DNA of 18,386 bases, taken from positions 1 to 18,386 of the forward strand of contig CAIUEN010000050.1 of assembly GCA_903898185.1 (NCBI GenBank), read 5' to 3'. The stretch is from an uncultured Verrucomicrobiales bacterium. Its GTDB lineage: Bacteria; Verrucomicrobiota; Verrucomicrobiia; Limisphaerales; Palsa-1400. The position numbers and the translations under genes are program-made. Position 1 is the first letter of the stretch, and every line of letters begins with the position of its first letter. Of this stretch, positions 1,252-13,105 are shown piece by piece. The notes beneath the pieces are model-generated. The model made no database searches, was not told the origin of the DNA, and was given only the letters and a program-made list of their open reading frames with translations.

Positions 1252-1433
1252 AGTTTACCTCCAGAGGCAATGTTTTCAAGAAACATAACTATCTCTGGGT
1301 TGTCGAAATGACCATCGTCCCCCGCCCTCTCCTACTTCATTATTGGAAATTCCTTGTTCGATATTTGTTATTCGTTTCCGTTCTATCAGAGCTAGCCAGA
1401 CTTTCGCATAAAACAGCATGAACATTGCCAGTT

Positions 1434-3140
1434 TCAACAACGATTCTGGATTTTATTGCTACATGAAAGAATAGTTGGAAACCAACGCTCAATCTCAAAG
1501 ACCCTTACGGCACGGAGTTGTTCGGTCGTCAGTTCCGGGGGGAGCATCACTGTGGGGCGTCTTCCCGCTGCCCCCGTCACAGTTTGCACCAGCGTGGCAC
1601 GAATTTCGGCCAGGCTCTTCATCATTTGCTGTGCCGAAGCGCTCGTGCCCAACGCCAGCTTGGCCAAGCTCACCAGCAACAGCCCCAGCACTGTGGCAAA
1701 AGTGTGCAACCGCAGCGACCCCTCGGCCCACTGGTGCGACGGCCCCCACGAAATCAGCCCGCCTTTTTTGGTCCGCCGGAAAAGTTCTTCCACGTTCCAC
1801 TGGCCCCGGAAAGCATGCACGATCCGATCGGTGCTCCAACTGTGTCGGTCGGTGCAAAGCACCCGTCGCCCCAAGCAGGTTTTCTCCAGTTGGCACCGCA
1901 AGGCGACATCGACCCGCCAGCCAAACGTGGGCCGTTGGTCGCTGCCGCCGATGGTGGTCACCACGAAACTCGACAGATGCTCCCGGGCCAGCACCTTCTG
2001 GCAGCACTCTTCCAAGCGGTCCCGGCATAGACGGCCCGCTTGAACCAAACGCTCCAGCTTGCGCAGTTCCTTTGTGGCCTTGCGCAGCGCGACCGCGATG
2101 CCCCGCTTCTGTCCCTCCAACGATTCTTCACTCTCGACCACCACCAGTGTGCGATCCAGCTCACCCACGGGTGTTCGCAACCGAGCCGCTCGGACATGTT
2201 TAAGTTTACCCGAAAGCGGCTGCATCGCTCCACACTGCGCTGCCTGTTCCAAAGCGGCTTGCGCGGCGGAGTGCCCGGTCGGCAGCGAGATGATGCTGTG
2301 GTAGCCGATCCGATCCAGATCCTGTTCCAACTGAGGGCTCCAGAATCCGCCGTCGCGCACCAGTGTGCGTTGCGGGGCGCGCTCGGCCCCGTTGTCGAGC
2401 CCTTGGTGCAGTTGCTTCAATCCCTCCAGGCAAGCCTCCATCACGCCTTGATCGGAGCCATTGCCGGAGTATGTCCGATACAACAACGGCACATGTCCGG
2501 TCTCGCTGACCAGCAGGCCCACCCCCACCACGCGCAGATCGCCGCGTTTGCTCTTGGCGTGACCGCGCTGGGAGAGTTTGCCCGATGTAAGAGTGGAAAT
2601 GTGCGTGTCGAAGTTGGTCGTGTCAAAGGCCAGCACATCGGTCGAGAGTTCGAACCGGGCAACAGCCGCCTTGGAAATCGCCACATGCGCCTTCTCCAAG
2701 GACTGCTCGTCAACCTGTTGGGCTACGCGATGAAACGCCTGGCCGCTGAAGGCCGCGCCGCGCAAACACGAGAGGCGAGGCACACTGGCATCCAAGAAGT
2801 CGCCCAAGTCGCATTTGGGTCCCGGTGAACAGACGCTCTGAATGGCCACCGCGACCACCAGTTCGCCAATGGAAGGTCCGTTTTTGGCTCCGAGGCAACC
2901 GCAGGCCCGGTCTATAAGACCAATCATATCCAACTGCTCGGCTATCCAGATCAAGGCACCAACGTCGCCGATAGCGCGCGTGCCGACGCTGCGCGTAGCG
3001 GCCAAGTCTGCGAACGGTGGAGGTGCGACCGGCCCCAGCACAACTTGACGCGCAACCGAGCGCCCACCGGCAGGGTCCCAAACAGATTGGGCGGCGATGC
3101 GGTATCGGTGGCCGTTGATTTCACGTTCAAAGATATGCAT
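1434..3140 (-). CDS. IS1634-family (IS4-related) DDE transposase, 568 aa
   Basis: The length is typical, about 570 aa. The N-terminus (MHIFEREINGHRYRIAAQSVWDP...) and the central segment VVGVGLLVSETGHVPLLYRTYSGNGSD are recalled as characteristic of IS1634-type transposases. The ORF is single and uninterrupted. The nested ORFs inside it (1456-2043, 1475-2203, 2040-2828 and others) are high-GC artefacts. Confidence 0.8.
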   Translation of the reverse strand: MHIFEREINGHRYRIAAQSVWDPAGGRSVARQVVLGPVAPPPFADLAATRSVGTRAIGDVGALIWIAEQLDMIGLIDRACGCLGAKNGPSIGELVVAVAIQSVCSPGPKCDLGDFLDASVPRLSCLRGAAFSGQAFHRVAQQVDEQSLEKAHVAISKAAVARFELSTDVLAFDTTNFDTHISTLTSGKLSQRGHAKSKRGDLRVVGVGLLVSETGHVPLLYRTYSGNGSDQGVMEACLEGLKQLHQGLDNGAERAPQRTLVRDGGFWSPQLEQDLDRIGYHSIISLPTGHSAAQAALEQAAQCGAMQPLSGKLKHVRAARLRTPVGELDRTLVVVESEESLEGQKRGIAVALRKATKELRKLERLVQAGRLCRDRLEECCQKVLAREHLSSFVVTTIGGSDQRPTFGWRVDVALRCQLEKTCLGRRVLCTDRHSWSTDRIVHAFRGQWNVEELFRRTKKGGLISWGPSHQWAEGSLRLHTFATVLGLLLVSLAKLALGTSASAQQMMKSLAEIRATLVQTVTGAAGRRPTVMLPPELTTEQLRAVRVFEIERWFPTILSCSNKIQNRC

Positions 3141-3186
3141 ATTCTTTCACGTAGCATATCCATCGGCACGTCGTCAAGCATGCGTG

Positions 3187-3214
3187 TTGGATGTTTGCCT
3201 CGTGAGTTTATATG
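3187..3214 (+). promoter_or_regulatory. candidate sigma70-like promoter for dnaE (TTGGAT - 16 nt - TATATG)
   Basis: A -35-like TTGGAT (3187-3192) and a -10-like TATATG (3209-3214) with a 16-nt spacer, about 175 nt upstream of the dnaE ATG. Consensus matching in an organism of unknown sigma specificity is weak evidence. Confidence 0.2.
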
Positions 3215-3387
3215 CCGTTGAGCGCGGTTTCACAAACGGCAGCCCTCAAAAATGCGAAATGCGGGCTAAACACCCAAAGAGCCATCGGGCGGGACGCCCG
3301 ATCTTTGTCACTGGCACTGGGCGCGTTGCCGCGCTGATGAAAAATCCCTCGCATAGGATTCGGTTGGTCTTCATAATCACCGAAAGT

Positions 3388-6300
3388 ATGTCGCACGCTG
3401 ACTTTGTTCATCTTCATGTTCACACCGAGTATTCGCTGCTCGATGGCGCTTGCCGCATGGACCGGCTCATGGATAAAGCGCATGAGCTGAAGTTCCCTGC
3501 CTTGGCGATAACCGATCATGGCGTGCTCTTTGGGGCCATCGATTTTTATCAGGCCGCCCGCAGCAAGGGGATCAAGCCGATCATCGGCTGCGAGGTCTAT
3601 ATCGCACGGGGAAGCCGCCTGGAGAAAAAGGCCGGTCTGGGCGGGAAAGATGGATATAATCACCTGATTCTGCTGGCCAAGGACGAGGCCGGATACAAGA
3701 ACCTGGTCAAGCTGGTTACTTTGGCGCACTTGGAGGGCTATTATTACAAGCCGCGCATCGACCGCGAAATCCTGGCCACCTACAAGGACGGCTTGGTGGC
3801 TCTCTCATCCTGTCTCAAGGGTGAAATCCCCGAGTTGATCGCCGATGACCGCCTTCCCGATGCCCGGAAAGCCATTGATTGGTACAAGCAAACGCTTGGG
3901 GCGGAGAACTTTTACCTCGAATTACAGGATCACGGCATCCCGGAGCAGGCCAAGGTGAACCGAGTTCTGATTCCGCTTGCCAAGGAATTCGGAATCAAGC
4001 TCGTCGCCACCAACGACGTTCATTACATCGAGAAAAACCACTCGCACGCCCACGATTGCCTGATTTGCATCGGCACGCAGACACAACTTGCCGACACCAA
4101 GCGGATGCACTACGCCCCCGAGCAGTTTTATCTGCGCTCGGCTGAGGAGATGAAGGCCCGCTTTCACGAGATCCCGGAGGCGGTGAGCAATACGCTGGAA
4201 GTGGCCCAGCAGTGCAATGTCGAGATTGAGTTCGGCAAACTCCATTATCCGATCTTCAGTCCACCGGAGCATTTTACGCGCGAGGGTTACCTGCGCAAAC
4301 TGGTCGCCGAAGGACTCCATTTCCGTTACGGGATGAATGTTCGGGCTGAAGGACAGGAATTCATCGTCGATGGCTTGGGAGACCCGCGCCGATTGCCAAC
4401 GTACGTTCCTGCGCCTGGAACCACGGTTCCGGAAGACCCGAAACTGGCCATGCAGGATCCCCAGGTGGCCGCCGCGATCAAGGTTGTCATCGACCGCCTT
4501 GACCTGGAAATGAAGGTAATCGAACAGACCGGCTTCATCAGCTACTTCTTGATCGTCGGCGACTTTGTTCGCTACGGTCGAAGCAAAGGCGTCACATGCG
4601 TGGCGCGCGGATCGGCGGCTGGTTCGATTGTGACTTATGTGCTGGAGATTTCGAACGTCGATCCGATTCGTTACGGGCTGCTGTTCGAACGATTCCTCAA
4701 CCCGGAACGCGTCAACCCTCCCGATATCGACATCGACTTTGCCGACGACCGCCGGGCTGACGTGATCGAATATGTGCGCGAGAAATATGGACGCGATTCG
4801 GTGGCGCAGATCGTCACCTTCGGCACAATGGGCGCCAAATCGGTTCTGCGGGATGTCGGTCGCGTCATGGGCTTGGGTTATTCCGACTGCGACCGGTTGG
4901 CCAAGATGATTCCCAACGAACTGAAGATGTCGCTGGAAAAAGCGATGGGGATGTCGCCGGACTTTAAGCAGGCTTACGAGACCGAAGAGGTCACCCATGA
5001 ACTGGTCGATACCGCCCTGGTTCTCGAAGATCTCACCCGCAACGCATCGGTTCACGCGGCCGGCGTGCTTATTGGCGATCAGCCGTTGCACAATCTTCTG
5101 CCGCTCAAAAAGGATGAGGATGGCACCATTGTCACCCAATACGCCATGGGCCCTGTCGGCGACCTCGGCCTGCTGAAGATGGACTTCCTTGGGCTCAAGA
5201 CCTTGACGGTCATCCGCAATACCTGCGATCTTGTCAAGCAGACCCAGGGAATCGACATCCCCATTGACGACCTTCCGCTCGACGACGCCAAGACCTACGA
5301 CCTTCTCAACAAGGCCAATACCATCGGTGTGTTCCAATTGGAATCTGGAGGAATGCGCGATCTCTGCAAAAAGTTCAAGATTAGCTCGGTGGAACATATC
5401 ACGGCGTTGGTGGCGCTCTATCGTCCGGGACCGATGGACCTGATCCCCGATTTCATCAAGCGCCGGCATGGCGAGGTGAAAATCGAGTATGATCATCCGC
5501 TGCTGGAGTCGATCAGCAAAGAGACCTATGGCGTGCTGATCTACCAGGAACAAGTCATGCAGGCCGCGCAGTTGCTCGCCGGCTACACGCTCGGCGGCGC
5601 TGATCTGCTGCGCCGCGCGATGGGCAAGAAGAAGATCGAGGAAATGGCCAAGCACCGTGACAAATTCGTCAAGGGAGCAGCCAAGCTCAACAATATCCAC
5701 GAGGCCAAGGCCAACCAGATTTTCGATTTGCTCGAGAAATTCGCTGGCTACGGTTTCAACAAGTCGCACGCGGCCGCCTATGCCATCGTCGCCTACCAGA
5801 CGGCTTACCTGAAGGCCAATAATCCTGTCGAGTTCCTCAGCGCCATGATGACCAACGACATGAGCGACACTGCCAAGTTGAGCATCCTGATCAACGAGGC
5901 GAAGGCGTTCGATGTCGAAGTTCTCGGCCCCGACATCAACGAAAGCGGCGTGTTTTTTACGCCCGCCAAGGTAGAGCAGGCTTCCAGCCTGCTCAGGGGA
6001 GACACGAGAGGGCTGCAGTCACCACAGTTGGAACAGGCGGGACGCGCTGTTCTACCAGAGCAGGCTTCCAGCCTGCTCGGGGGGGACGTGAAAGGGTTGC
6101 AGTCACCACAGCTTGAACAGGCGGGACGCACTGTTCTACCAGAGCAGGCTTCCAGCCTGCTCGGGGGGGACGTGAAAGGGCTGCAGTCACCACAGCTTGA
6201 ACAGGCGGGACGCACTGTTCTACCAGAGCAGGCTTCCAGCCTGCTCAGTGGGGACATGAGAGGGTTGCAGTCACCACAGTCTGAACAGGCGGGACGCGCT

Positions 6301-7398
6301 GTTCTACCAGAGCAGACTTCCAGCCTGCTCAGTCGGAACATGTCCACCGCCATCCGTTTCGGCCTTGCCGCCATCAAAGGCGTGGGCGAGGTCGCCGTGC
6401 AAAGCATTCTTGATGCCCGGAAAGCCGGTGGAAAATTCACCTCCCTTTCCGAGTTGTGCGAGCGCGTCGATGGCCGGACTGTCAATCGCAAAGTCCTCGA
6501 ATCGCTCATCAAATCCGGAGCGTGCGATTGTTTCAACGAAACCCGCGCCTCGCTTTTCGGCAAGATAGATCGCGCGCTTACGCGGGCGGCCGGGGTGATC
6601 AACGACCGGCAGCGCGGACAAGACACGTTGTTCGGCATGTTGGAAGAAACGCCCGACCGCAAGCCCGATGTTGAGAAACAGTTGCCGGAGTGGCCGCAGC
6701 ACGAACTGCTGGCGCATGAGAAAGAACTGCTGGGCTTCTATGTCAGCGGCCATCCGCTCACGCCCCTGGCACCGATCATTGAGCAATACGCGTTGCATAA
6801 AACAAACCAGCTTCCGGCGCTGCCTTCGCGCGGAATGACCCGCATCGGCGGCATGATCGCCGTCGTGCAAAAGGGGTTTTCCAAGAAAAGCAACAAACCG
6901 TATGCAATGGTGACACTGGAGGATTTGGAAGGCTCGGTGCAGATCCTCTGCATGAACGAGAACTACGACAAATATGTCGATCTCCTGGTTGTCAATAAAC
7001 CAATCCTGGTGATCGGCGAGGTCAATAATTCCGAGGACAAGCCCAAGATATTCCCACAGGAAATCATGCCTTTGGAAGATGCCCCTCGCAAATTCACCCG
7101 GCAGGTTCATTTTCGTTTGCAGACGGCGCAGATTGTTCCCGACGACCTGAATTCAGTGATCGACATTGTGGCGGCCCACCCGGGCCGATGTCCGCTGTTT
7201 CTCTGTTTCATGCGCCCGGGCGGCGAGGTTGTATTCCTGGAGACGCACGAAAAATACGGAGTCTGCCCGTCTGTGCCCCTGCAAAAAGCCGTGGACGAAC
7301 GCTACGGCGAAGGCACGTATTACGCCAGGGTGGATGCAAGCTTGCCAGAGCGGGAGAAACGCCGATGGGAGAAGAAGTCTGAAGGAAACGGTGAATAG
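3388..7398 (+). CDS. dnaE: DNA polymerase III alpha subunit (DnaE), about 1336 aa, with an in-frame repeat insertion
   Basis: The true start is the ATG at 3388 (MSHADFVHLHVHTEYSLLDGA), which matches the canonical DnaE N-terminal PHP motif. The 3097 start in the ORF track is an upstream extension overlapping the transposase start. The protein has a PHP domain, a polymerase core (GxGYSDCD..., KMDFLGLKTLT, FNKSHAAAYA), IRFGLAAIKGVGE HhH/beta-binding segments and an OB-fold C-terminus. Confidence 0.95.
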   Translation: MSHADFVHLHVHTEYSLLDGACRMDRLMDKAHELKFPALAITDHGVLFGAIDFYQAARSKGIKPIIGCEVYIARGSRLEKKAGLGGKDGYNHLILLAKDEAGYKNLVKLVTLAHLEGYYYKPRIDREILATYKDGLVALSSCLKGEIPELIADDRLPDARKAIDWYKQTLGAENFYLELQDHGIPEQAKVNRVLIPLAKEFGIKLVATNDVHYIEKNHSHAHDCLICIGTQTQLADTKRMHYAPEQFYLRSAEEMKARFHEIPEAVSNTLEVAQQCNVEIEFGKLHYPIFSPPEHFTREGYLRKLVAEGLHFRYGMNVRAEGQEFIVDGLGDPRRLPTYVPAPGTTVPEDPKLAMQDPQVAAAIKVVIDRLDLEMKVIEQTGFISYFLIVGDFVRYGRSKGVTCVARGSAAGSIVTYVLEISNVDPIRYGLLFERFLNPERVNPPDIDIDFADDRRADVIEYVREKYGRDSVAQIVTFGTMGAKSVLRDVGRVMGLGYSDCDRLAKMIPNELKMSLEKAMGMSPDFKQAYETEEVTHELVDTALVLEDLTRNASVHAAGVLIGDQPLHNLLPLKKDEDGTIVTQYAMGPVGDLGLLKMDFLGLKTLTVIRNTCDLVKQTQGIDIPIDDLPLDDAKTYDLLNKANTIGVFQLESGGMRDLCKKFKISSVEHITALVALYRPGPMDLIPDFIKRRHGEVKIEYDHPLLESISKETYGVLIYQEQVMQAAQLLAGYTLGGADLLRRAMGKKKIEEMAKHRDKFVKGAAKLNNIHEAKANQIFDLLEKFAGYGFNKSHAAAYAIVAYQTAYLKANNPVEFLSAMMTNDMSDTAKLSILINEAKAFDVEVLGPDINESGVFFTPAKVEQASSLLRGDTRGLQSPQLEQAGRAVLPEQASSLLGGDVKGLQSPQLEQAGRTVLPEQASSLLGGDVKGLQSPQLEQAGRTVLPEQASSLLSGDMRGLQSPQSEQAGRAVLPEQTSSLLSRNMSTAIRFGLAAIKGVGEVAVQSILDARKAGGKFTSLSELCERVDGRTVNRKVLESLIKSGACDCFNETRASLFGKIDRALTRAAGVINDRQRGQDTLFGMLEETPDRKPDVEKQLPEWPQHELLAHEKELLGFYVSGHPLTPLAPIIEQYALHKTNQLPALPSRGMTRIGGMIAVVQKGFSKKSNKPYAMVTLEDLEGSVQILCMNENYDKYVDLLVVNKPILVIGEVNNSEDKPKIFPQEIMPLEDAPRKFTRQVHFRLQTAQIVPDDLNSVIDIVAAHPGRCPLFLCFMRPGGEVVFLETHEKYGVCPSVPLQKAVDERYGEGTYYARVDASLPEREKRRWEKKSEGNGE
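5974..6332 (+). repeat. 84-bp tandem repeat, about 4.25 copies, in-frame inside dnaE; each unit begins with a 21-bp perfect palindrome
   Basis: Units start at 5974, 6058, 6142 and 6226, with a partial unit at 6310. The units are about 90-95% identical. The core gagcaggcttccagcctgctc is an 8-bp stem with a 5-nt loop. Each unit encodes a 28-aa module, LPEQASSLLGGDVKGLQSPQLEQAGRTV, with R/G, V/M and T/A variation. The array is inserted between DINESGVFFTPAKVEQ and NMSTAIRFGLAAIKGVGE. Confidence 0.9.
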
Positions 7399-7414: not shown

Positions 7415-7687
7415 ATGCCGCAAGCAATCATGGATCCTGAGCAAGTCCGGCGGTTTGCCGAGGAACTTAAGCGTTTTAACGCTGATCTCCAAGACCGAAT
7501 GTCGGCGTTGCAAGGGCGTTTCGCCGCGTTGGGTGATAGTTGGCAGGATCAGGAGCACAAGAAGTTTGCCGATGAATTTGTCCAAACGCTCAAGGCGATG
7601 AAGAGGTTCGTTGAGATATCCAATCAGCACACCCCTTACCTGTTGCGCAAGGCCCAGCGTATCGAAGAATATCTGAACCAACGATAA
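7415..7687 (+). CDS. small helical WXG100-like (ESAT-6/EsxA-like) protein, 90 aa, with a W-x-D variant of the WXG turn
   Basis: The ATG lies 17 nt after the dnaE stop, preceded by GGAGCGAAGAGA. The protein is about 90 aa, predicted all-helical, with a central turn LGDSWQDQ. W43-Q44-D45 sits at the same position as the W43-x-G45 turn of ESAT-6. It shares the motif DSW(Q/R)D...F...(F/Y) with the 70-aa ORF at 8404. The ORF-track 7166 start is an artefactual extension back into dnaE. Confidence 0.55.
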   Translation: MPQAIMDPEQVRRFAEELKRFNADLQDRMSALQGRFAALGDSWQDQEHKKFADEFVQTLKAMKRFVEISNQHTPYLLRKAQRIEEYLNQR

Positions 7688-7691
7688 AATC

Positions 7692-8264
7692 ATGGCCGTC
7701 GGCGCCCATGTCACATCCATCGAAGCTCTCGAATCATTTCGAGCGAATCTGATCGTTTACATCAACAAAGCCCGACCGACTTTGGAGGAAATCAGCTCGG
7801 ATGTAATGCGGACGCGGCTTTGGCTGGAGAACAACCAGCGTCTGCACTGGGAAGCCCAGTTACAGCGGCGCGCCAAGGAATTGGAGGCCGCGCGGCAAGA
7901 ACTCTTCAGCGCGGGATTGGCAAATCTGAGGGATACCACGGCTGCCGAGATCATGGCTGTTCGCCGGGCCGAACGGGCGCTTGAGGAGGCCGACAACAAG
8001 CTGCGCTTGGTCAAGAAGTGGACGCGTGAATTTGACAGCCGGACAGCCCCGGTGGCCAGGCAATTGGAAAAGCTCGCAACCATGCTGGCCAACGACCTGC
8101 CGTCGGCGGTCGCGTTCCTGTCGCAAATCATCAAGACTCTCGATGCCTACGGAGCAGGCGGATCAACGCCCGTTCTTTCCGAGGCGACGGCCACGGTCAA
8201 AACCGATCCAGCAGCAGCGAAACCGGACGAGACTGTTCCGTCTCAACCCTCGAACTTGCCATGA
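7692..8264 (+). CDS. hypothetical helical protein, 190 aa (candidate accessory or chaperone component)
   Basis: The ATG is 5 nt after the preceding stop. The protein is predicted coiled-coil/helical with a low-complexity A/T/P-rich C-terminal tail. No recognisable family. Confidence 0.55.
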   Translation: MAVGAHVTSIEALESFRANLIVYINKARPTLEEISSDVMRTRLWLENNQRLHWEAQLQRRAKELEAARQELFSAGLANLRDTTAAEIMAVRRAERALEEADNKLRLVKKWTREFDSRTAPVARQLEKLATMLANDLPSAVAFLSQIIKTLDAYGAGGSTPVLSEATATVKTDPAAAKPDETVPSQPSNLP

Positions 8265-8265
8265 G

Positions 8266-8400
8266 CAGCAATTCTCATTTTGAGCAAGGAACGGGGAAAA
8301 ACCTGGTCTGCCTGCGCACGAATTTTTCGACTCCCTTGCGGAGCCAGAGGCACCGCAACTGGCAGGCCAGAGGCCTACCCCACATAATGAGAATTGCTGT
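8266..8400 (+). repeat. Roughly 115-bp intergenic element, copy 1, bracketed by a 14-bp inverted repeat (cagcaattctcatt / aatgagaattgctg); candidate structured RNA or MITE
   Basis: About 85% identical over roughly 115 bp to 18194-18307 in the same orientation. Both copies share ttttcgactccc, gagccagaggcac and the hairpin aggccagaggcct. The inverted-repeat arms abut the upstream stop (8264) and the downstream start (8404) exactly. Confidence 0.6.
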
Positions 8401-8403
8401 GCC

Positions 8404-8616
8404 ATGAGCGTTGCCGCCAACAAAGCCAGGCTGATATCCTCCACGCGCGAGCTGGCGGCACAATGGGCGTTGACCAAGGATTCCTGGCGAGATGTCAAAT
8501 GCCTGGAATTCGAGCGCAAATACATGGAACAGCTTGTCTCCAATGTCGAAGCGGCGATGGAAGTGATTGATCAGTTGGACAAGCTTGTCAGCAAGATCAG
8601 GAGCGATTGTGAGTAG
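8404..8616 (+). CDS. small helical WXG100-like protein, 70 aa, paralogous to the 7415 ORF
   Basis: It has LTKDSWRDVKCLEFERKY, parallel to LGDSWQDQEHKKFADEF in the 7415 ORF. It is predicted helical. Its stop overlaps the GTG start of the downstream ATPase gene. Confidence 0.5.
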   Translation: MSVAANKARLISSTRELAAQWALTKDSWRDVKCLEFERKYMEQLVSNVEAAMEVIDQLDKLVSKIRSDCE

Positions 8617-11600
8617 CGCATTATCGGTGAGTCAGGTATTGGAGTGTCTGGAACGCCTCCGGGATGCGGCGCGCGACTGCGCCGTGCGCGAACGGGATCT
8701 CAACCAGAAGCGTCAGTCGCGTCTCAATCTCCTGGCTCAGAATCGCCAGGCGGCCACCGATGCGCAGAATGTTCAATTAGCGGAACAGCTTGACTTGGTT
8801 CGCGCCTGGTTTGAAGCAGCGAAGACAACCCCAAGAAACCATCGCGAACGCCGACGGATTCGCATCCATGAAGCTTGGAAGAACAGCCGAAAACAGGCAT
8901 CTGAGCGGATCGAAGCGCAAGAAGGACGCCGCAAATATAAACTGCAAACCGAAACCATGCAGGCCGCCCGCACTCGCAAAAATGATCTGGAGGCCGCCGA
9001 AAAAGCGCGCAACGATTTCAAAGCCGAACTGGAATTGGAAAATCAAACGCTGGCGCAGCTTGAGAATACCGCGAGAGAGGCGTTTCAAGGCTACGCCAAA
9101 TTTTCCGGGATGCTCAACTACACCGCGCCGGACCTTGCTCCAGGAAGCGATGAATATCAACTGATTGTCACGTTGCGGGAGTCGCTTGACAACAGTCGCA
9201 GCGGAATCGAACGGTTCCAACGCTATTTTCTGCCACGTCTTTTCAGGCTCACTCCACTCTTGGTTCCGCTGGCGCTGACCCTCGGCGCTGTGCCGCTGTT
9301 GCGGTCATTGCAGATGGTTGTTTACGGTTGGACTACAGCCATCGTATTGGTTGGATCGCTCTTTGCGGTTGGGTTTGTCCTGCATCACATGGGCAAGCGT
9401 CAGGGGCTGAGGCTTGCCGGCGAGATATCCCGGGCGCTGGTGCGGGCGCGCAAATTGCGCGATGGCTGTCTTGCCCATTGCGACGCGCGTTACACGCGGG
9501 AAACCGAGCGGATTGAAGCCGAACATCGATCTCGCAACGAGTCAATCACTCAGCAGTGGGGCCAGGCCGTGAACGATTCAAAGCAGATGACAGAGCCGGC
9601 GCTGGCCAGAATGGATGAAAAGAAAGCGCGCGCGACCACCCGAATGGAACGGCTGTTTCAAGCCGCCGTTGAAGCCCTGGCTCGCGAGCAATCCCGGCGA
9701 GTGGAGAGGATCCAACGCGACATACAGGATTACCTCGATGAATTGGAGCGGACCTGCGAGAATAGAGAAACGGCATTGCGCAATGAGATGGAGTCGCAAT
9801 GGCAGACGCTGGAGAGAGATTGGAAGACGGCTGTAAAACCGCTCTTTGCCACCATTGTGAGCGCTCAAAGTCAGGCTGCGAAATTCCCTGAATGGAACCG
9901 TTCAACCGTTCAAAGCTGGACGCCGCCGGCAGTCTTTGAGCATGCGGCCAAATTCGCAAGGGTCGTTGTCGATGTCGAAAAACTGGCGGATGCGCTGCCG
10001 ACCGACCCACGACTTGCTTTGCCGGGGCCCTGTCATTTTGAGGTGCCGCTCCTGCTGACGTTTCCGCAACAGGGCTCGGTCTTGTTTGAAACCAGCGATG
10101 CGTCCACCGAAGGTGTCGTCGCATGCGTCAACAACATCATCCTGCGTCTGCTGTTCGAAGCCCCGCCAGGACGGCTGAACTTTACGATTTTTGATCCAGT
10201 CGGACTGGGCCAGAATTTTGCGGGTGTCATGCATCTGGCCGATTACGAAGATCACCTGATCAACAGCCGCATCTGGACACAGCCCGCGCAATTCGAGCAG
10301 AAGCTGGCCGATCTCAACGAGCACATGGAGAAGGTCATCCAGATGTACCTGCGCAATGAATACGCGACCATCGCCGAATACAACGAGCAGGCGGGCAACA
10401 TTGCCGAGAAATATCATTTTCTCGTCGTTGCCAATTTTCCGTCCGGGTTTACCGAGACAGCGGCCCTGCGCTTGTTGAGCATTGCGGCCTCGGGAGCGCG
10501 TTGCGGCGTTTATACGCTGATTCACTGGGATCATCGCCAGCCCAGCCCGTCCGATTTCGTGCCGGATGAATTGATCAAGGGGAGCATTTGTCTCACTGTC
10601 AAAGGCAGTCGTTTTCTGCTTTCGCGCGGACAGCTTCCCGGCACGAGCATCGTTCCGGATCTGGCTCCCGAGCCCGACCTGGCAATCGAGCTGATTCATA
10701 AAATTGGCCTGAGCAGCCGCGATTCCAACCGCGTGGAGGTGCCATTCTCCCACGTTGCGCCACCGGACGACGCGCTCTGGAATCTGGAGACCACGTCGGA
10801 ACTCCGGGTGGCGTTTGGACGCACTGGCGCGACCAAGTTGCAGTACTTGGCCATCGGCAAGGGCACCCGCCAGCATGCTCTGTTGGCCGGCAAAACCGGG
10901 TCGGGTAAATCGACGCTCTTGCACGTTATCATCACCAACCTGGCGCTCTGGTGCAGCCCCGAACAGGTCGAGTTCTATCTGGTCGATTTCAAGAAGGGGG
11001 TTGAATTCAAGTGTTATGCCACCAAACGCCTGCCGCATGCGCGGGTGGTGGCCATTGAGAGCGACCGAGAGTTCGGCCTGAGCGTTCTGCAACGAGTCGA
11101 TGCCGAACTCAAGCGGCGCGGCGATCTTTTTCGCAACCTGGGCGTTCAGGATCTTGCCGGTTACAAACGGGCGGGTGGCGTCGAATCACTTCCCCGGACG
11201 CTGCTGATCATTGACGAATTTCAGGAGTTCTTTGTCGAGGATGACAAGATTTCGCAATCGGCGTCGCTGCTGCTGGACCGGATTGCGCGCCAAGGCCGCG
11301 CATTTGGGGTTCACGCCATTCTTGGATCTCAGACGCTCGGTGGGGCATATACGATGGCTCGCACAACTTTAGGGCAAATGGTCATTCGCATTGCCTTGCA
11401 ATGCAACGAGGCGGATTCCTACCTCATCATGGACGAGAACAACTCCGCGCCGCGCCTGCTCTCGCGTCCAGGAGAAGGCATTTACAATGACTCCGCTGGC
11501 GTCATGGAAGGGAACAGCCCGTTTCAAACCGTGTGGCTGTCGGACGAGTGTCGTGACATGTGGCTGGACAAAGTGCGCTATCGGGCTGACCAGGCACAAC

Positions 11601-12493
11601 CGAAAGCTTACCCAGGGCCGATTGTGTTCGAAGGCGACGCGCCGGCGGACATTCGCGAAAACCCGTTGCTTCAGTCCCTTCTGGAGACTCCGGTTGTCCG
11701 CCCGCCCGCTGCTGCGCGCGCCTGGCTGGGCGCTCCCAATTCGATCAAAGGCCCGACAGAGGTCACGTTTCAACGTCAGAGCGGGAACAACCTCCTTATT
11801 ATAGGCCAGCAGGACGAGGCTGTCCTGGCTATTTTTACCACAACATTGGTGGCGCTGGCAGCGCAACATCCAGGCGACACCGCCCGGTTTATCGTAGTTG
11901 ATGCCTCGGCACCCGGATCGCTCCATCGCGACTACGTTGAACGCCTTGTCCAGTCGATCCCTCGCCAGGTTTCGCTGGCGCGGAACAGCGATCTTCCGGA
12001 AATCATGAGTAGGCTGGCGTCTGACCTCAAGAAATCTGCTGAGCATGACAACAAGGCAACGCCATCGACGTATTTGCTGATTCACGGTCTGCAAAAATTC
12101 TCCAAACTGCGTTACGAGGAGGACTTTGGCTTCTCAAGCGATCCGGCCATCGCAGCCAATCCGTCCGTGGCGCTCAACACATTGATCTGCGAGGGCGCCA
12201 GCCACGGTATTCACGTCATTGCCTCATGCGACACCTACAATAACGTCGTCCGGTTTCTGAGCCGGAAAGCGCTGGGCGAATTTGAAATGCGGGCGCTCTT
12301 CCAGATGAGCGCCAACGATTCCGCAAGTTTGATTGACAATCCACGAGCGGGCAACCTGGGTCTGCACCGTGCGATTTTCTCCAATCAACACGAGGGATAC
12401 CTGGAGGTCTTCCGTCCATATGCGTTGCCGTCGGCGCAGTGGATTGAGGAAGTAACGCGGGCGATGGATAATCGTCGCGTTATTTTGTACTGA
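8609..12493 (+). CDS. Membrane-anchored FtsK/SpoIIIE-family ATPase with three tandem FtsK-like domains (EssC/EccC-like T7SS ATPase candidate), about 1294 aa
   Basis: The preferred start is GTG at 8609 with AGGAG 6-7 nt upstream, overlapping the upstream stop. The TTG at 8567 in the ORF track is less likely. The N-terminal roughly 210 aa is a charged coiled coil. It is followed by two TM helices (LTPLLVPLALTLGAVPLLRSL and VVYGWTTAIVLVGSLFAVGFVL, about nt 9245-9383). The central domain has Walker A HALLAGKTGSGKSTLLHVI (about nt 10888-10914) and Walker B TLLIIDEFQEF (about nt 11201-11230). The flanking domains are degenerate but clearly paralogous: LLLTFPQQGSVLFETSDASTEG...NFTIFDPVG and NLLIIGQQDEAVLAIF...RFIVVDAS...TYLLIHGLQKF. 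The nested antisense ORF 9902-11092 is an artefact. Confidence 0.8.
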   Translation: MSSALSVSQVLECLERLRDAARDCAVRERDLNQKRQSRLNLLAQNRQAATDAQNVQLAEQLDLVRAWFEAAKTTPRNHRERRRIRIHEAWKNSRKQASERIEAQEGRRKYKLQTETMQAARTRKNDLEAAEKARNDFKAELELENQTLAQLENTAREAFQGYAKFSGMLNYTAPDLAPGSDEYQLIVTLRESLDNSRSGIERFQRYFLPRLFRLTPLLVPLALTLGAVPLLRSLQMVVYGWTTAIVLVGSLFAVGFVLHHMGKRQGLRLAGEISRALVRARKLRDGCLAHCDARYTRETERIEAEHRSRNESITQQWGQAVNDSKQMTEPALARMDEKKARATTRMERLFQAAVEALAREQSRRVERIQRDIQDYLDELERTCENRETALRNEMESQWQTLERDWKTAVKPLFATIVSAQSQAAKFPEWNRSTVQSWTPPAVFEHAAKFARVVVDVEKLADALPTDPRLALPGPCHFEVPLLLTFPQQGSVLFETSDASTEGVVACVNNIILRLLFEAPPGRLNFTIFDPVGLGQNFAGVMHLADYEDHLINSRIWTQPAQFEQKLADLNEHMEKVIQMYLRNEYATIAEYNEQAGNIAEKYHFLVVANFPSGFTETAALRLLSIAASGARCGVYTLIHWDHRQPSPSDFVPDELIKGSICLTVKGSRFLLSRGQLPGTSIVPDLAPEPDLAIELIHKIGLSSRDSNRVEVPFSHVAPPDDALWNLETTSELRVAFGRTGATKLQYLAIGKGTRQHALLAGKTGSGKSTLLHVIITNLALWCSPEQVEFYLVDFKKGVEFKCYATKRLPHARVVAIESDREFGLSVLQRVDAELKRRGDLFRNLGVQDLAGYKRAGGVESLPRTLLIIDEFQEFFVEDDKISQSASLLLDRIARQGRAFGVHAILGSQTLGGAYTMARTTLGQMVIRIALQCNEADSYLIMDENNSAPRLLSRPGEGIYNDSAGVMEGNSPFQTVWLSDECRDMWLDKVRYRADQAQPKAYPGPIVFEGDAPADIRENPLLQSLLETPVVRPPAAARAWLGAPNSIKGPTEVTFQRQSGNNLLIIGQQDEAVLAIFTTTLVALAAQHPGDTARFIVVDASAPGSLHRDYVERLVQSIPRQVSLARNSDLPEIMSRLASDLKKSAEHDNKATPSTYLLIHGLQKFSKLRYEEDFGFSSDPAIAANPSVALNTLICEGASHGIHVIASCDTYNNVVRFLSRKALGEFEMRALFQMSANDSASLIDNPRAGNLGLHRAIFSNQHEGYLEVFRPYALPSAQWIEEVTRAMDNRRVILY

Positions 12494-12547: not shown

Positions 12548-13105
12548 ATGATCTTTTTCGTTTATGTCATCTGTCTTGGGGCGGGGTTTTTATTTACCCT
12601 GCTTGCGGCAGTTATGGGCCATGTGTTTGGCCATGACGGCCATGTCGTGGGCAGCCACGGCTCGGTCGAAGCCGGCGAGGACGGCAGCGATTCCTCAGGC
12701 GTGTCGGCGTTCAGTCCGACAATCATTGCCGCGTTTGTAACGGCTTTTGGCGGTTTGGGACTGATTTTCACGCAAGTTCAAGCCACGAAGAGCCCGCTTA
12801 TCAGCGCGCCATTGGCGATTGTGGGCGCACTGGTCATTGCATCCCTCATGGTGAGGGTGCTGCGACAGCTATTCGCGCACACACAGAGTTCGAGCGAATC
12901 CCATGTGGCAACCTTGGTGGGGGTTTGCGCGAATATCATTTCGCCGATCCCAGCAAATGGCATGGGTGAAATCGCCTATGTCCAAGGCGGTAGCCGCTAT
13001 ACCGCGCCCGCGCGGGAACTCACAGGCCAACCGGTGGCGATGGGACAGCCGGTCAAAATCGCAAAAATCATCGGTTCCCAATTTTACGTAACAATCATCA
13101 ACTAA
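12548..13105 (+). CDS. NfeD-like (YuaF/YqiJ-type) membrane protein partner of flotillin
   Basis: Hydrophobic N-terminal TM segments, a His-rich loop (HVFGHDGHVVGSHGS) and a C-terminal OB-fold-like beta segment (GEIAYVQGGSRYTAPARELTGQPVAMGQPVKIAKIIGSQFYV). It is placed immediately upstream of an SPFH gene (stop 13105, next ATG 13109), as in yuaF-floT and yqiJ-yqiK. Confidence 0.7.
   Translation: MIFFVYVICLGAGFLFTLLAAVMGHVFGHDGHVVGSHGSVEAGEDGSDSSGVSAFSPTIIAAFVTAFGGLGLIFTQVQATKSPLISAPLAIVGALVIASLMVRVLRQLFAHTQSSSESHVATLVGVCANIISPIPANGMGEIAYVQGGSRYTAPARELTGQPVAMGQPVKIAKIIGSQFYVTIIN

Follow-up and report, generated by a model that had tools for sequence, protein, structure and literature searches.

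An in-frame tandem array of repetitive extragenic palindromic elements in the dnaE gene of an uncultured Verrucomicrobiales bacterium

What is the origin of a tandem repeat that adds more than a hundred residues to an essential replication enzyme? This question was raised by the dnaE gene, encoding the alpha subunit of DNA polymerase III (Pol III alpha), of an uncultured Verrucomicrobiales bacterium. The gene is located on contig CAIUEN010000050.1 of GenBank assembly GCA_903898185.1, and all 18,386 nucleotides (nt) of this stretch are referred to here as the window. An initial annotation of this DNA had reported an 84-bp tandem repeat within dnaE. Our analyses indicate that the array is very probably a tandemly amplified head-to-head pair of repetitive extragenic palindromic (REP) elements, lying in frame in a surface loop of DnaE and encoding a peptide that is probably a passenger. 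The explanation is of an ordinary class, the array being an unusually large and copy-number-variable example of the intragenic REPs known since 2013.

Composition of the array and identity of its hairpins

The array was detected by Tandem Repeats Finder at positions 5973-6332, with a period of 84, 4.3 copies, 93% matches and zero indels. Reading by hand divided it into four full 84-bp units (5974-6309), with GTA preceding unit 1, and a fifth, partial unit of 33 nt (6310-6342). A codon of the open reading frame (ORF) at 3097-7398 starts at position 5974, and this ORF has Pfam matches to PHP, DNA_pol3_alpha, DNA_pol3_finger, HHH_6 and OB domains. The array is in frame with dnaE, as had been proposed, and codes for 4.4 copies of a 28-amino-acid (aa) module, in the form given by the initial annotation, adding ~124 aa to DnaE. 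Each full unit consists of a first hairpin (REP1), a 36-nt variable spacer, an inverted second hairpin (REP2) and the dinucleotide CA; a degenerate fifth REP1 and a further 12 nt follow the fourth unit, giving a total of nine REP hairpins. The REP1 21-mer, GAGCAGGCT-TCC-AGCCTGCTC, had been described as a perfect 21-bp palindrome but is a perfect 9-bp inverted repeat with a 3-nt loop, whose reverse complement differs at 3 positions. The second hairpin of each unit had been overlooked in the initial annotation. On the plus strand this hairpin reads GAACAGGCG-GGA-CGC(A/G)CTGTTC, followed by CTAC (GTAG on the other strand), and it has a 9-bp stem with one bulge. The GTAG tag is present at REP1 copy 1 and at all four REP2 copies. 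The array and its components are as follows.

5971-6342, plus strand: in-frame REP cluster resembling a bacterial interspersed mosaic element (BIME, a term defined in PMC3733652), from Tandem Repeats Finder, the unit table and alignment to intergenic copies on contig L001
5971-5994, plus strand: REP1 copy 1 with full GTAG tag, GTAG-AGCAGGCT-TCC-AGCCTGCT-C; DNA fold of -10.5 kcal/mol, z = -5.7
5995-6030, plus strand: variable spacer of unit 1, between the hairpins; an equivalent segment is present in every unit
6031-6055, minus strand: REP2 copy 1, GTAG-AACAG(C/T)GCG-TCC-CGCCTGTT-C; fold of -7.3 kcal/mol, z = -3.7
6058-6078, 6142-6162 and 6226-6246, plus strand: internal copies of the REP1 21-mer, with CCAG in front instead of GTAG
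6115-6139, 6199-6223 and 6283-6307, minus strand: other copies of REP2, the bulged base being the only variable one
6310-6330, plus strand: last copy of the REP1 21-mer, with one stem mismatch (G to A)

REPs form a class of DNA repeats, selfish or semi-domesticated, that is widespread in bacteria. A GT[A/G]G tag beside a short GC-rich hairpin is the signature of the GTAG superfamily of REPs (PMC3733652). As both hairpins of the array are short, GC-rich stem-loops that carry the GTAG tag at one end, they were assigned to the REP elements, the unit being two head-to-head REPs with a 36-nt spacer. Within the window, the 21-mer was found with up to 3 mismatches at five plus-strand sites, or in nine matches when the near-palindromic minus-strand reading is included, as compared to an expectation of 0.01 by chance. 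Reference genomes were scanned for the exact 21-mer using one genome per species (596 Gb), a set to which the source genome does not belong. A total of 107 copies in 97 loci was detected, relative to ~0.3 expected by chance. The hosts belonged to the Acidobacteriota, Thermoanaerobaculales, Planctomycetota, Verrucomicrobiota, Chloroflexota, Cytophagales and Acidimicrobiia; hence, one exact 21-nt REP is common to distant phyla. At least 20 loci were present in a single metagenome-assembled genome (MAG) of the Acidobacteriota. The 21-mer was preceded by GTGG in 82 copies and by GTAG in 9 (together 91/107, 85%), and an inverted partner hairpin was located near many of the copies. On three contigs (L087, L064 and L034), the 21-mer flanked ORF segments matching NCBIfam model NF047646 for the REP-associated tyrosine transposase (RAYT), with E values of 1e-17 to 1e-29; the profile matches of the 18-kb window and of a related contig, L002, included no RAYT.

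A few of the reference-genome matches appeared to be of a different nature. A match in a Pseudodesulfovibrio MAG (L081:6905-6925) lacked the GTRG tag, was followed by a run of T and is most likely an ordinary intrinsic terminator sharing the 21-mer by chance. Matches in Streptomyces (L061) and Neomegalonema (L025) were untagged and resembled plain coding sequence.

The source lineage is known from fragments (the window, L002, L003 and related contigs) rather than from a whole genome with its REP census and RAYT. The whole unit of REP1, spacer and REP2 was, nevertheless, also detected in an intergenic position, as two tandem 105-bp copies between two genes on a 1.5-kb contig (L001). Alignment of L001 with the dnaE unit showed identical hairpins, a spacer that was 12 nt longer in L001 and a junction that was 9 nt longer. 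P0121, the sole match in a word-indexed peptide search, was discarded as a spurious ORF across the intergenic element copy on this contig. In a metagenome scan, the exact REP2 25-mer was detected on only three contigs (L101-L103), all representing one unrelated locus in which it is extragenic and adjoins another REP, an occurrence which shows that REP2 is a REP in its own right. The view of the repeat as a novelty specific to dnaE is, therefore, not sustained, as a GT[A/G]G-tagged REP is present in many genomes and the whole unit is also intergenic. The alternative that the initial annotation had itself put forward, a dispersed or mobile repeat, was the right one, given the 97 genome loci of the 21-mer and the unit on L001.

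Two other classes of element were considered and rejected. A CRISPR array was discounted because the segments between hairpins are copies of one another (93% matches over the whole 84-bp unit) and not unique spacers. An intein was discounted since Pfam assigns no family to ORF residues 960-1083, the sequence of which is the 28-aa repeat.

Location of the insert and variation among units

Alignment to solved Pol III alpha structures placed the insert between E. coli residues 821 and 830 and between Taq residues 880 and 886. The site corresponds to a beta-hairpin turn immediately ahead of IRFGLAAIKGVGE, the helix-hairpin-helix (HhH) motif, and the Pfam HHH_6 match is split by the insert. The lengths of the loop were as follows.

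39 element-free relatives: 10-48 aa, with a mode of 12
P0002 (1 full unit): 51 aa
P0001 (3 full units): 107 aa
Window (4 full units): 135 aa

A normally short loop has, hence, been expanded by the repeat, in agreement with the initial annotation. The closest REP-free relatives (83-84% identity) have unrelated loops of 23 and 37 aa, and one of them shares with the window the left-edge codons of the insert (AAG GTn GAG C). An AlphaFold2 model was obtained for ORF residues 660-1240 with 40 homologues. The predicted local distance difference test (pLDDT) scores fell to 24-31, with no secondary structure, exactly over the insert, as compared to 78-89 for the fingers helices and 81-87 for the HhH region. 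The insert is predicted from this model to be a disordered loop, which had been one of the suggestions made at the outset. No real homologue of the 28-aa module was found with HMMER among 1.84 billion representative proteins; the 21 other matches (PD40-like ASNLVSGDxNG repeats and coiled coils) were rejected as chance periodic matches to unrelated repeat proteins.

Other DnaE relatives (P0078, P0051 and P0053) have variable PHP-palm and fingers-HhH loops containing repeat-like peptides (EPPHACSYN, EPPHVGGC and LSHPMGEG). The sequences of these peptides suggest that other repeat families may also have entered DnaE loops.

Three assemblies provided eight full units for a tabulation of variation. 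Variable bases were absent from the 36 stem positions but present at 15 of the 48 non-stem positions (Fisher p = 8.6e-5, a value that is indicative only since the units are not independent). Fourteen of the 15 variable positions were in the spacer, and the fifteenth was the bulged base of REP2. Codon variants among the units comprised 9 nonsynonymous and 5 synonymous changes. As the stems were invariant and the changes in the spacers were mostly nonsynonymous, it is the hairpins rather than the peptide that appear to be subject to constraint or homogenisation. The peptide, a disordered loop rich in Q, S, L, G and P, most likely serves no function itself and is carried as a passenger.

Alternatively, the 28-aa module could have evolved recently as an interaction or spacer domain of Pol III alpha, for example one that alters contacts with the clamp, tau or DNA or that generates a mutator polymerase. 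The array is open and in frame in all 11 full-length variants of DnaE described below and adjoins a DNA-binding motif, as might be expected of a functional domain; REP insertions are, moreover, enriched in replication and repair genes (PMC3733652), and the same REP is present in frame in the UvrA protein of another verrucomicrobium. Preservation of the frame is, however, explained in an essential gene by purifying selection on DnaE alone. The predicted disorder, the absence of a homologous protein for the module, the excess of nonsynonymous over synonymous changes, and a pattern of variation that avoids the DNA stems rather than particular residues all argue against a functional domain, as do a unit number that is not fixed and the intergenic occurrence of the unit DNA. 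A functional protein repeat was, therefore, considered very unlikely.

The invariance of the stems while the peptide drifts, together with the stability of the hairpins, could also reflect a role at the RNA or DNA level, with the nine hairpins being kept for regulation of dnaE through mRNA stability, translational pausing or binding of gyrase or IHF. Roles in mRNA stabilisation and supercoiling have been proposed for REPs and BIMEs (PMC3733652). Comparison of window positions 5700-6600 with the Rfam covariance models produced only a chance-level snoRNA match (E = 0.62) and no known structured RNA. Furthermore, relatives at 83-84% identity manage without the array, the terminal REP1 is decaying and the copy number varies freely, such that a regulatory role seems unlikely.

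Copy-number alleles and formation of the array

The array was carried by eleven full-length DnaE variants from ENA, NCBI and JGI assemblies, with allele-specific substitutions. The numbers of full units were distributed as follows.

4 full units: 1 variant (window, P0130)
3 full units: 9 variants, of at least 5 allele types
1 full unit: 1 variant (P0002)

Outside the array, dnaE differed by only 0-1% between the window and these alleles. The comparison of related strains, which had been recommended as a check for copy-number variation, thus detected alleles with 1, 3 and 4 full units in near-identical strains, a series compatible with the earlier proposal of copy-number slippage driven by the hairpins. 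As the changes in length occur in 84-bp steps, the reading frame is always kept. Mosaic alleles, such as P0131, suggest that there has been exchange between units or between alleles.

The exact number of units is less secure than the presence of the array. A further contig, L106, showed no difference from the window over the 5,648 flanking bases that were compared, including those of an insertion sequence (IS) upstream of dnaE, but contained 3 full units instead of 4; the unit absent from L106 differs from its neighbour by one base. Such a discrepancy might be expected if short-read assemblers had looped through the repeat and the true gene had one copy or none. The contigs are k141 short-read assemblies, and the single-base difference of the extra unit and the dnaE products P0124 and P0133, which start right after the array on some contigs, could be explained in the same way. 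Looping does not, however, create units that differ at up to 6 positions within one array, or alleles that differ from one another in consistent ways, both of which were observed. At least 1.4 units were, moreover, present in every assembly of the lineage, from all three sources, and the element exists elsewhere too. An assembly artefact is, therefore, a highly improbable explanation for the array, with doubt being confined to the precise unit count (3 or 4, and 1 or 3). The divergence of the copies had been cited in the initial annotation as evidence against an artefact; this argument was correct for the existence of the array, which is supported by the eleven variants, independent assemblies and allele-specific substitutions, but L106 demonstrates that divergence is no proof of copy number. 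The array itself is certainly real, while the difference between 3 and 4 units, and perhaps that between 1 and 3, could be due to very recent slippage or to assembly ambiguity. In short-read assemblies, arrays of this type cause breaks or distortions, and they also lead to inflated ORF calls.

A sequence of events leading to an amplified REP pair with a passenger peptide can be proposed. A REP1-REP2-REP1 cluster would have entered the segment of dnaE coding for the tip of the length-variable beta-hairpin before the HhH motif, the position in which the array is now observed; involvement of a RAYT in this insertion, by single-strand transposition, is presumed. The insertion would have survived since the frame was kept, no stop was introduced and a solvent-exposed loop was merely lengthened. 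The 21-mer is free of stops in all six frames, which should ease survival of an in-frame insertion. Tolerance of the insert by the protein would be consistent with the predicted disorder and with this dnaE being the only copy seen on the contigs and intact in all alleles. The direct repeats of REP1, together with hairpins that favour misalignment, may then have led to slippage or unequal recombination in 84-bp (28-codon) steps, of which the alleles with 1, 3 and 4 full units would be products. The conserved entity in this scheme would be the nucleic-acid hairpins and not the peptide.

Several observations weigh against this interpretation. The internal REP1 copies carry CCAG in front and not GTAG, the similarity of REP1 to inverted REP2 is only ~80%, and both minimum-energy and centroid folds give two separate hairpins instead of the single long hairpin of a REP doublet forming a hairpin (REPIN). 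Not every hairpin is maintained, as the stem of the last REP1 is broken by a substitution in all alleles read at the DNA level, with two different positions being affected. The invariance of the stems could be partly due to gene conversion or recent amplification rather than to selection. L001 is the only extragenic copy of the complete unit that was found, and the organism from which it derives is not established. The thin alignment over the insert may partly cause the pLDDT values of 24-31. Finally, as the contigs are k141 short-read assemblies, the differences in copy number could be partly artefactual.

Relationship to known systems and other features of the locus

BIMEs of E. coli are extragenic, typically 3' of genes, and are bound by IHF, gyrase and Pol I. 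According to Gilson and Bachellier, E. coli BIME-2 elements reportedly consist of alternating REPs with conserved spacers, in a variable head-to-tail reiteration whose number varies between strains. The dnaE array is BIME-like in its alternation of REP orientation, conserved spacers, tandem reiteration and copy number differing between strains. Unlike BIMEs, it is intragenic and not extragenic, and protein binding is known for the E. coli BIMEs while the array is known from sequence alone. REPINs comprise two inverted, near-identical REPs with a short spacer, are thought to be the unit mobilised by the RAYT, and form extragenic populations within genomes (PMC3116915, Bertels and Rainey 2011). 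The unit of the array similarly contains two inverted REPs and a short spacer; however, its arms are ~80% alike and fold separately, whereas REPIN arms form one long hairpin. Due to this divergence and to the separate hairpins, the array falls outside a strict definition of REPINs.

A split intein is known in the DnaE protein of cyanobacteria. Like DnaE inteins, the array is large, lies in frame in Pol III alpha and derives from a selfish element, but it differs from them in having no Hint/splicing domain or homing endonuclease by Pfam, in being repetitive and predicted to be disordered, and in presumably being kept in the mature protein. The view in the initial annotation that insertions in DnaE are inteins is outdated, as REPs in dnaE and dnaE2 were published in 2013 (PMC3733652). 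In that study, Di Nocera, De Gregorio and Rocco (BMC Genomics 14:522, PMC3733652) described GTAG- and CGTC-tagged REPs inside genes, with intragenic GTAG REPs being most numerous in the verrucomicrobium Opitutus terrae and in excess in replication and repair genes. Examples include O. terrae dnaE2 (aa 934-971) and Rickettsia conorii dnaE (aa 853-861). The REP clusters code for 43-82 aa, the large ones being tandemly reiterated dimers; the insertions may be neutral as they are located in loops, and a mutator effect was speculated upon for REP-tagged replication and repair proteins (PMC3733652). The dnaE array shares with these cases the GT[A/G]G-tagged GC-rich hairpins, the organization as head-to-head dimers or clusters and the in-frame position in a known gene, a likeness that is one of class. 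In contrast to the published cases, the array lies in the replicative DnaE of a verrucomicrobium, has 9 REPs derived from one dimer, codes for ~124 aa instead of 43-82 aa and has copy-number alleles among near-identical strains.

In-frame selfish repeats are also represented by the Rickettsia palindromic elements (RPEs). As summarized in PMC3733652, which cites Ogata et al. (2000), these are palindromic selfish repeats lying in frame in genes, including essential ones, at surface positions and with expressed products. On the basis of that summary, RPE-1 is a single element of 100-150 bp, while the dnaE array is a tandemly amplified REP dimer of an unrelated sequence family and host. The array is analogous to the RPEs but not homologous.

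These comparisons provide an apparently exotic insertion of ~120 aa in an essential polymerase with an ordinary origin tied to published intragenic REPs. At ~124 aa, the array is the largest REP-coded segment for which a record was found (43-82 aa in PMC3733652), and it has been built by BIME-like tandem amplification within a replicative polymerase. The allele series of 1, 3 and 4 units is a natural system for hairpin-driven slippage under frame constraint. The array also provides a means of exploring how long a disordered loop can be accommodated by Pol III alpha beside the HhH motif.

In four host proteins, which are known from assembled sequence only, the reading frame was found to continue through complete RAYT-like sequences that match NF047646 (E = 1e-17 to 1e-29) and have the 21-nt REP on their flanks. 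The 21-nt REP alone was in frame in three further proteins, from other Verrucomicrobiota. The seven hosts are as follows.

P0052 (protein only; JGI 3300050046, 984-kb contig): DnaE, with the RAYT in the PHP-palm loop
L087:3502-5874, minus strand: CarB, with the RAYT inside the oligomerisation domain
L064:2293-5385, minus strand: SNF2-like helicase, host of a RAYT
L034:4842-7985, minus strand: DNA methylase, host of a RAYT
L065:2397-4406, plus strand: GlpK-like FGGY kinase with in-frame 21-nt REP (Verrucomicrobiota)
L055:4024-5607, plus strand: FolC/Mur-ligase-like protein with in-frame 21-nt REP (Verrucomicrobiota)
L014:2959-6465, plus strand: UvrA with in-frame 21-nt REP (Verrucomicrobiota)

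The frame in which the REP is read differs among the last three proteins, giving AGFQPA or AGWKPA, and the L014 case parallels the uvrA cases of O. terrae (PMC3733652). As a stop-free stretch is uninformative as a coding test in GC-rich genomes, Pfam checks on selected ORFs were used instead. Nothing relevant was found in the literature on in-frame RAYTs inside host proteins, which is weak negative evidence. The presence of RAYTs or REPs in frame in these seven proteins raises the doubtful, though not negligible, prospect that the REP/RAYT system regularly colonises coding sequence in frame in soil and freshwater lineages of the Verrucomicrobiota and others, with the loops of essential genes acting as safe harbours. 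If so, the element would be transcribed there and could not be removed by imprecise deletion, and the dnaE array would represent a visible outcome of this process. In a stronger version, insertion into replication and repair proteins may be targeted or may alter their activity. In-frame RAYTs in host proteins would, if confirmed, be the more interesting lead.

Other repeats and an IS are located around dnaE in the window.

1322-1383, plus strand: remnant of a 122-124-bp REP-containing tandem repeat, distinct from the 84-bp unit and cut by the IS
1384-3322, minus strand: IS1634-family IS just upstream of dnaE, transposase ORF at 1434-3140 (NF033559, E = 1.3e-46)
3364-7398, plus strand: dnaE, Pol III alpha, with a start at 3364 (as called for P0130) or at ATG 3388
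8340-8383, minus strand: single extragenic copy of a second REP type, GTGG-tagged hairpin GTGGGGTAGGCC-TCT-GGCCTGCCA on this strand

The second REP type (GGAGCCAGACGCTCC...CTGGCAGACCAGAGGTCTGCCCCAC, with its GTGG tag on the minus strand) was also found as four tandem 122-124-bp copies upstream of dnaE on L003 (446-938) and singly on L002 (2796-2819). Its tandem arrangement on L003 indicates that this genome habitually multiplies REP-containing units in tandem. The IS1634-family element, which is absent from this position in L002 and L003 but present in L106, sits within the 122-124-bp tandem repeat and is context only, forming no part of the 84-bp array. As the first ~270 bases of the dnaE ORF (3097-3363) lie inside this element, they are a spurious 5' extension and the real start is near 3364 or 3388. 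Similarity of the window to L002 and L003 begins at 3323, and homologues with 97-100% identity begin at MxxIITESMSHADF. The true start is most likely 3364 or 3388, giving a protein of 1344 or 1336 aa instead of 1433 aa.

Just downstream of dnaE, an ORF at 7415-7687 encodes a small protein resembling WXG100/ESAT-6, with a match to TIGR03930 (E = 6e-8) that falls below the curated cut-off. It is followed at 8567-12493 by an ORF for a 1308-aa FtsK/SpoIIIE-family ATPase. By analogy, this pair is reminiscent of type VII secretion, here in a verrucomicrobial genome. No family was matched by two ORFs beside the pair (7692-8264 and 12548-13105). At the other end of the window, an HsdM-like ORF of 308 aa is present at 130-1056 on the minus strand. 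Where this ORF ends at its C-terminus, the N6_Mtase match has reached only position 164 of the 311 in the profile, and the type I methylase gene may be truncated or frameshifted.

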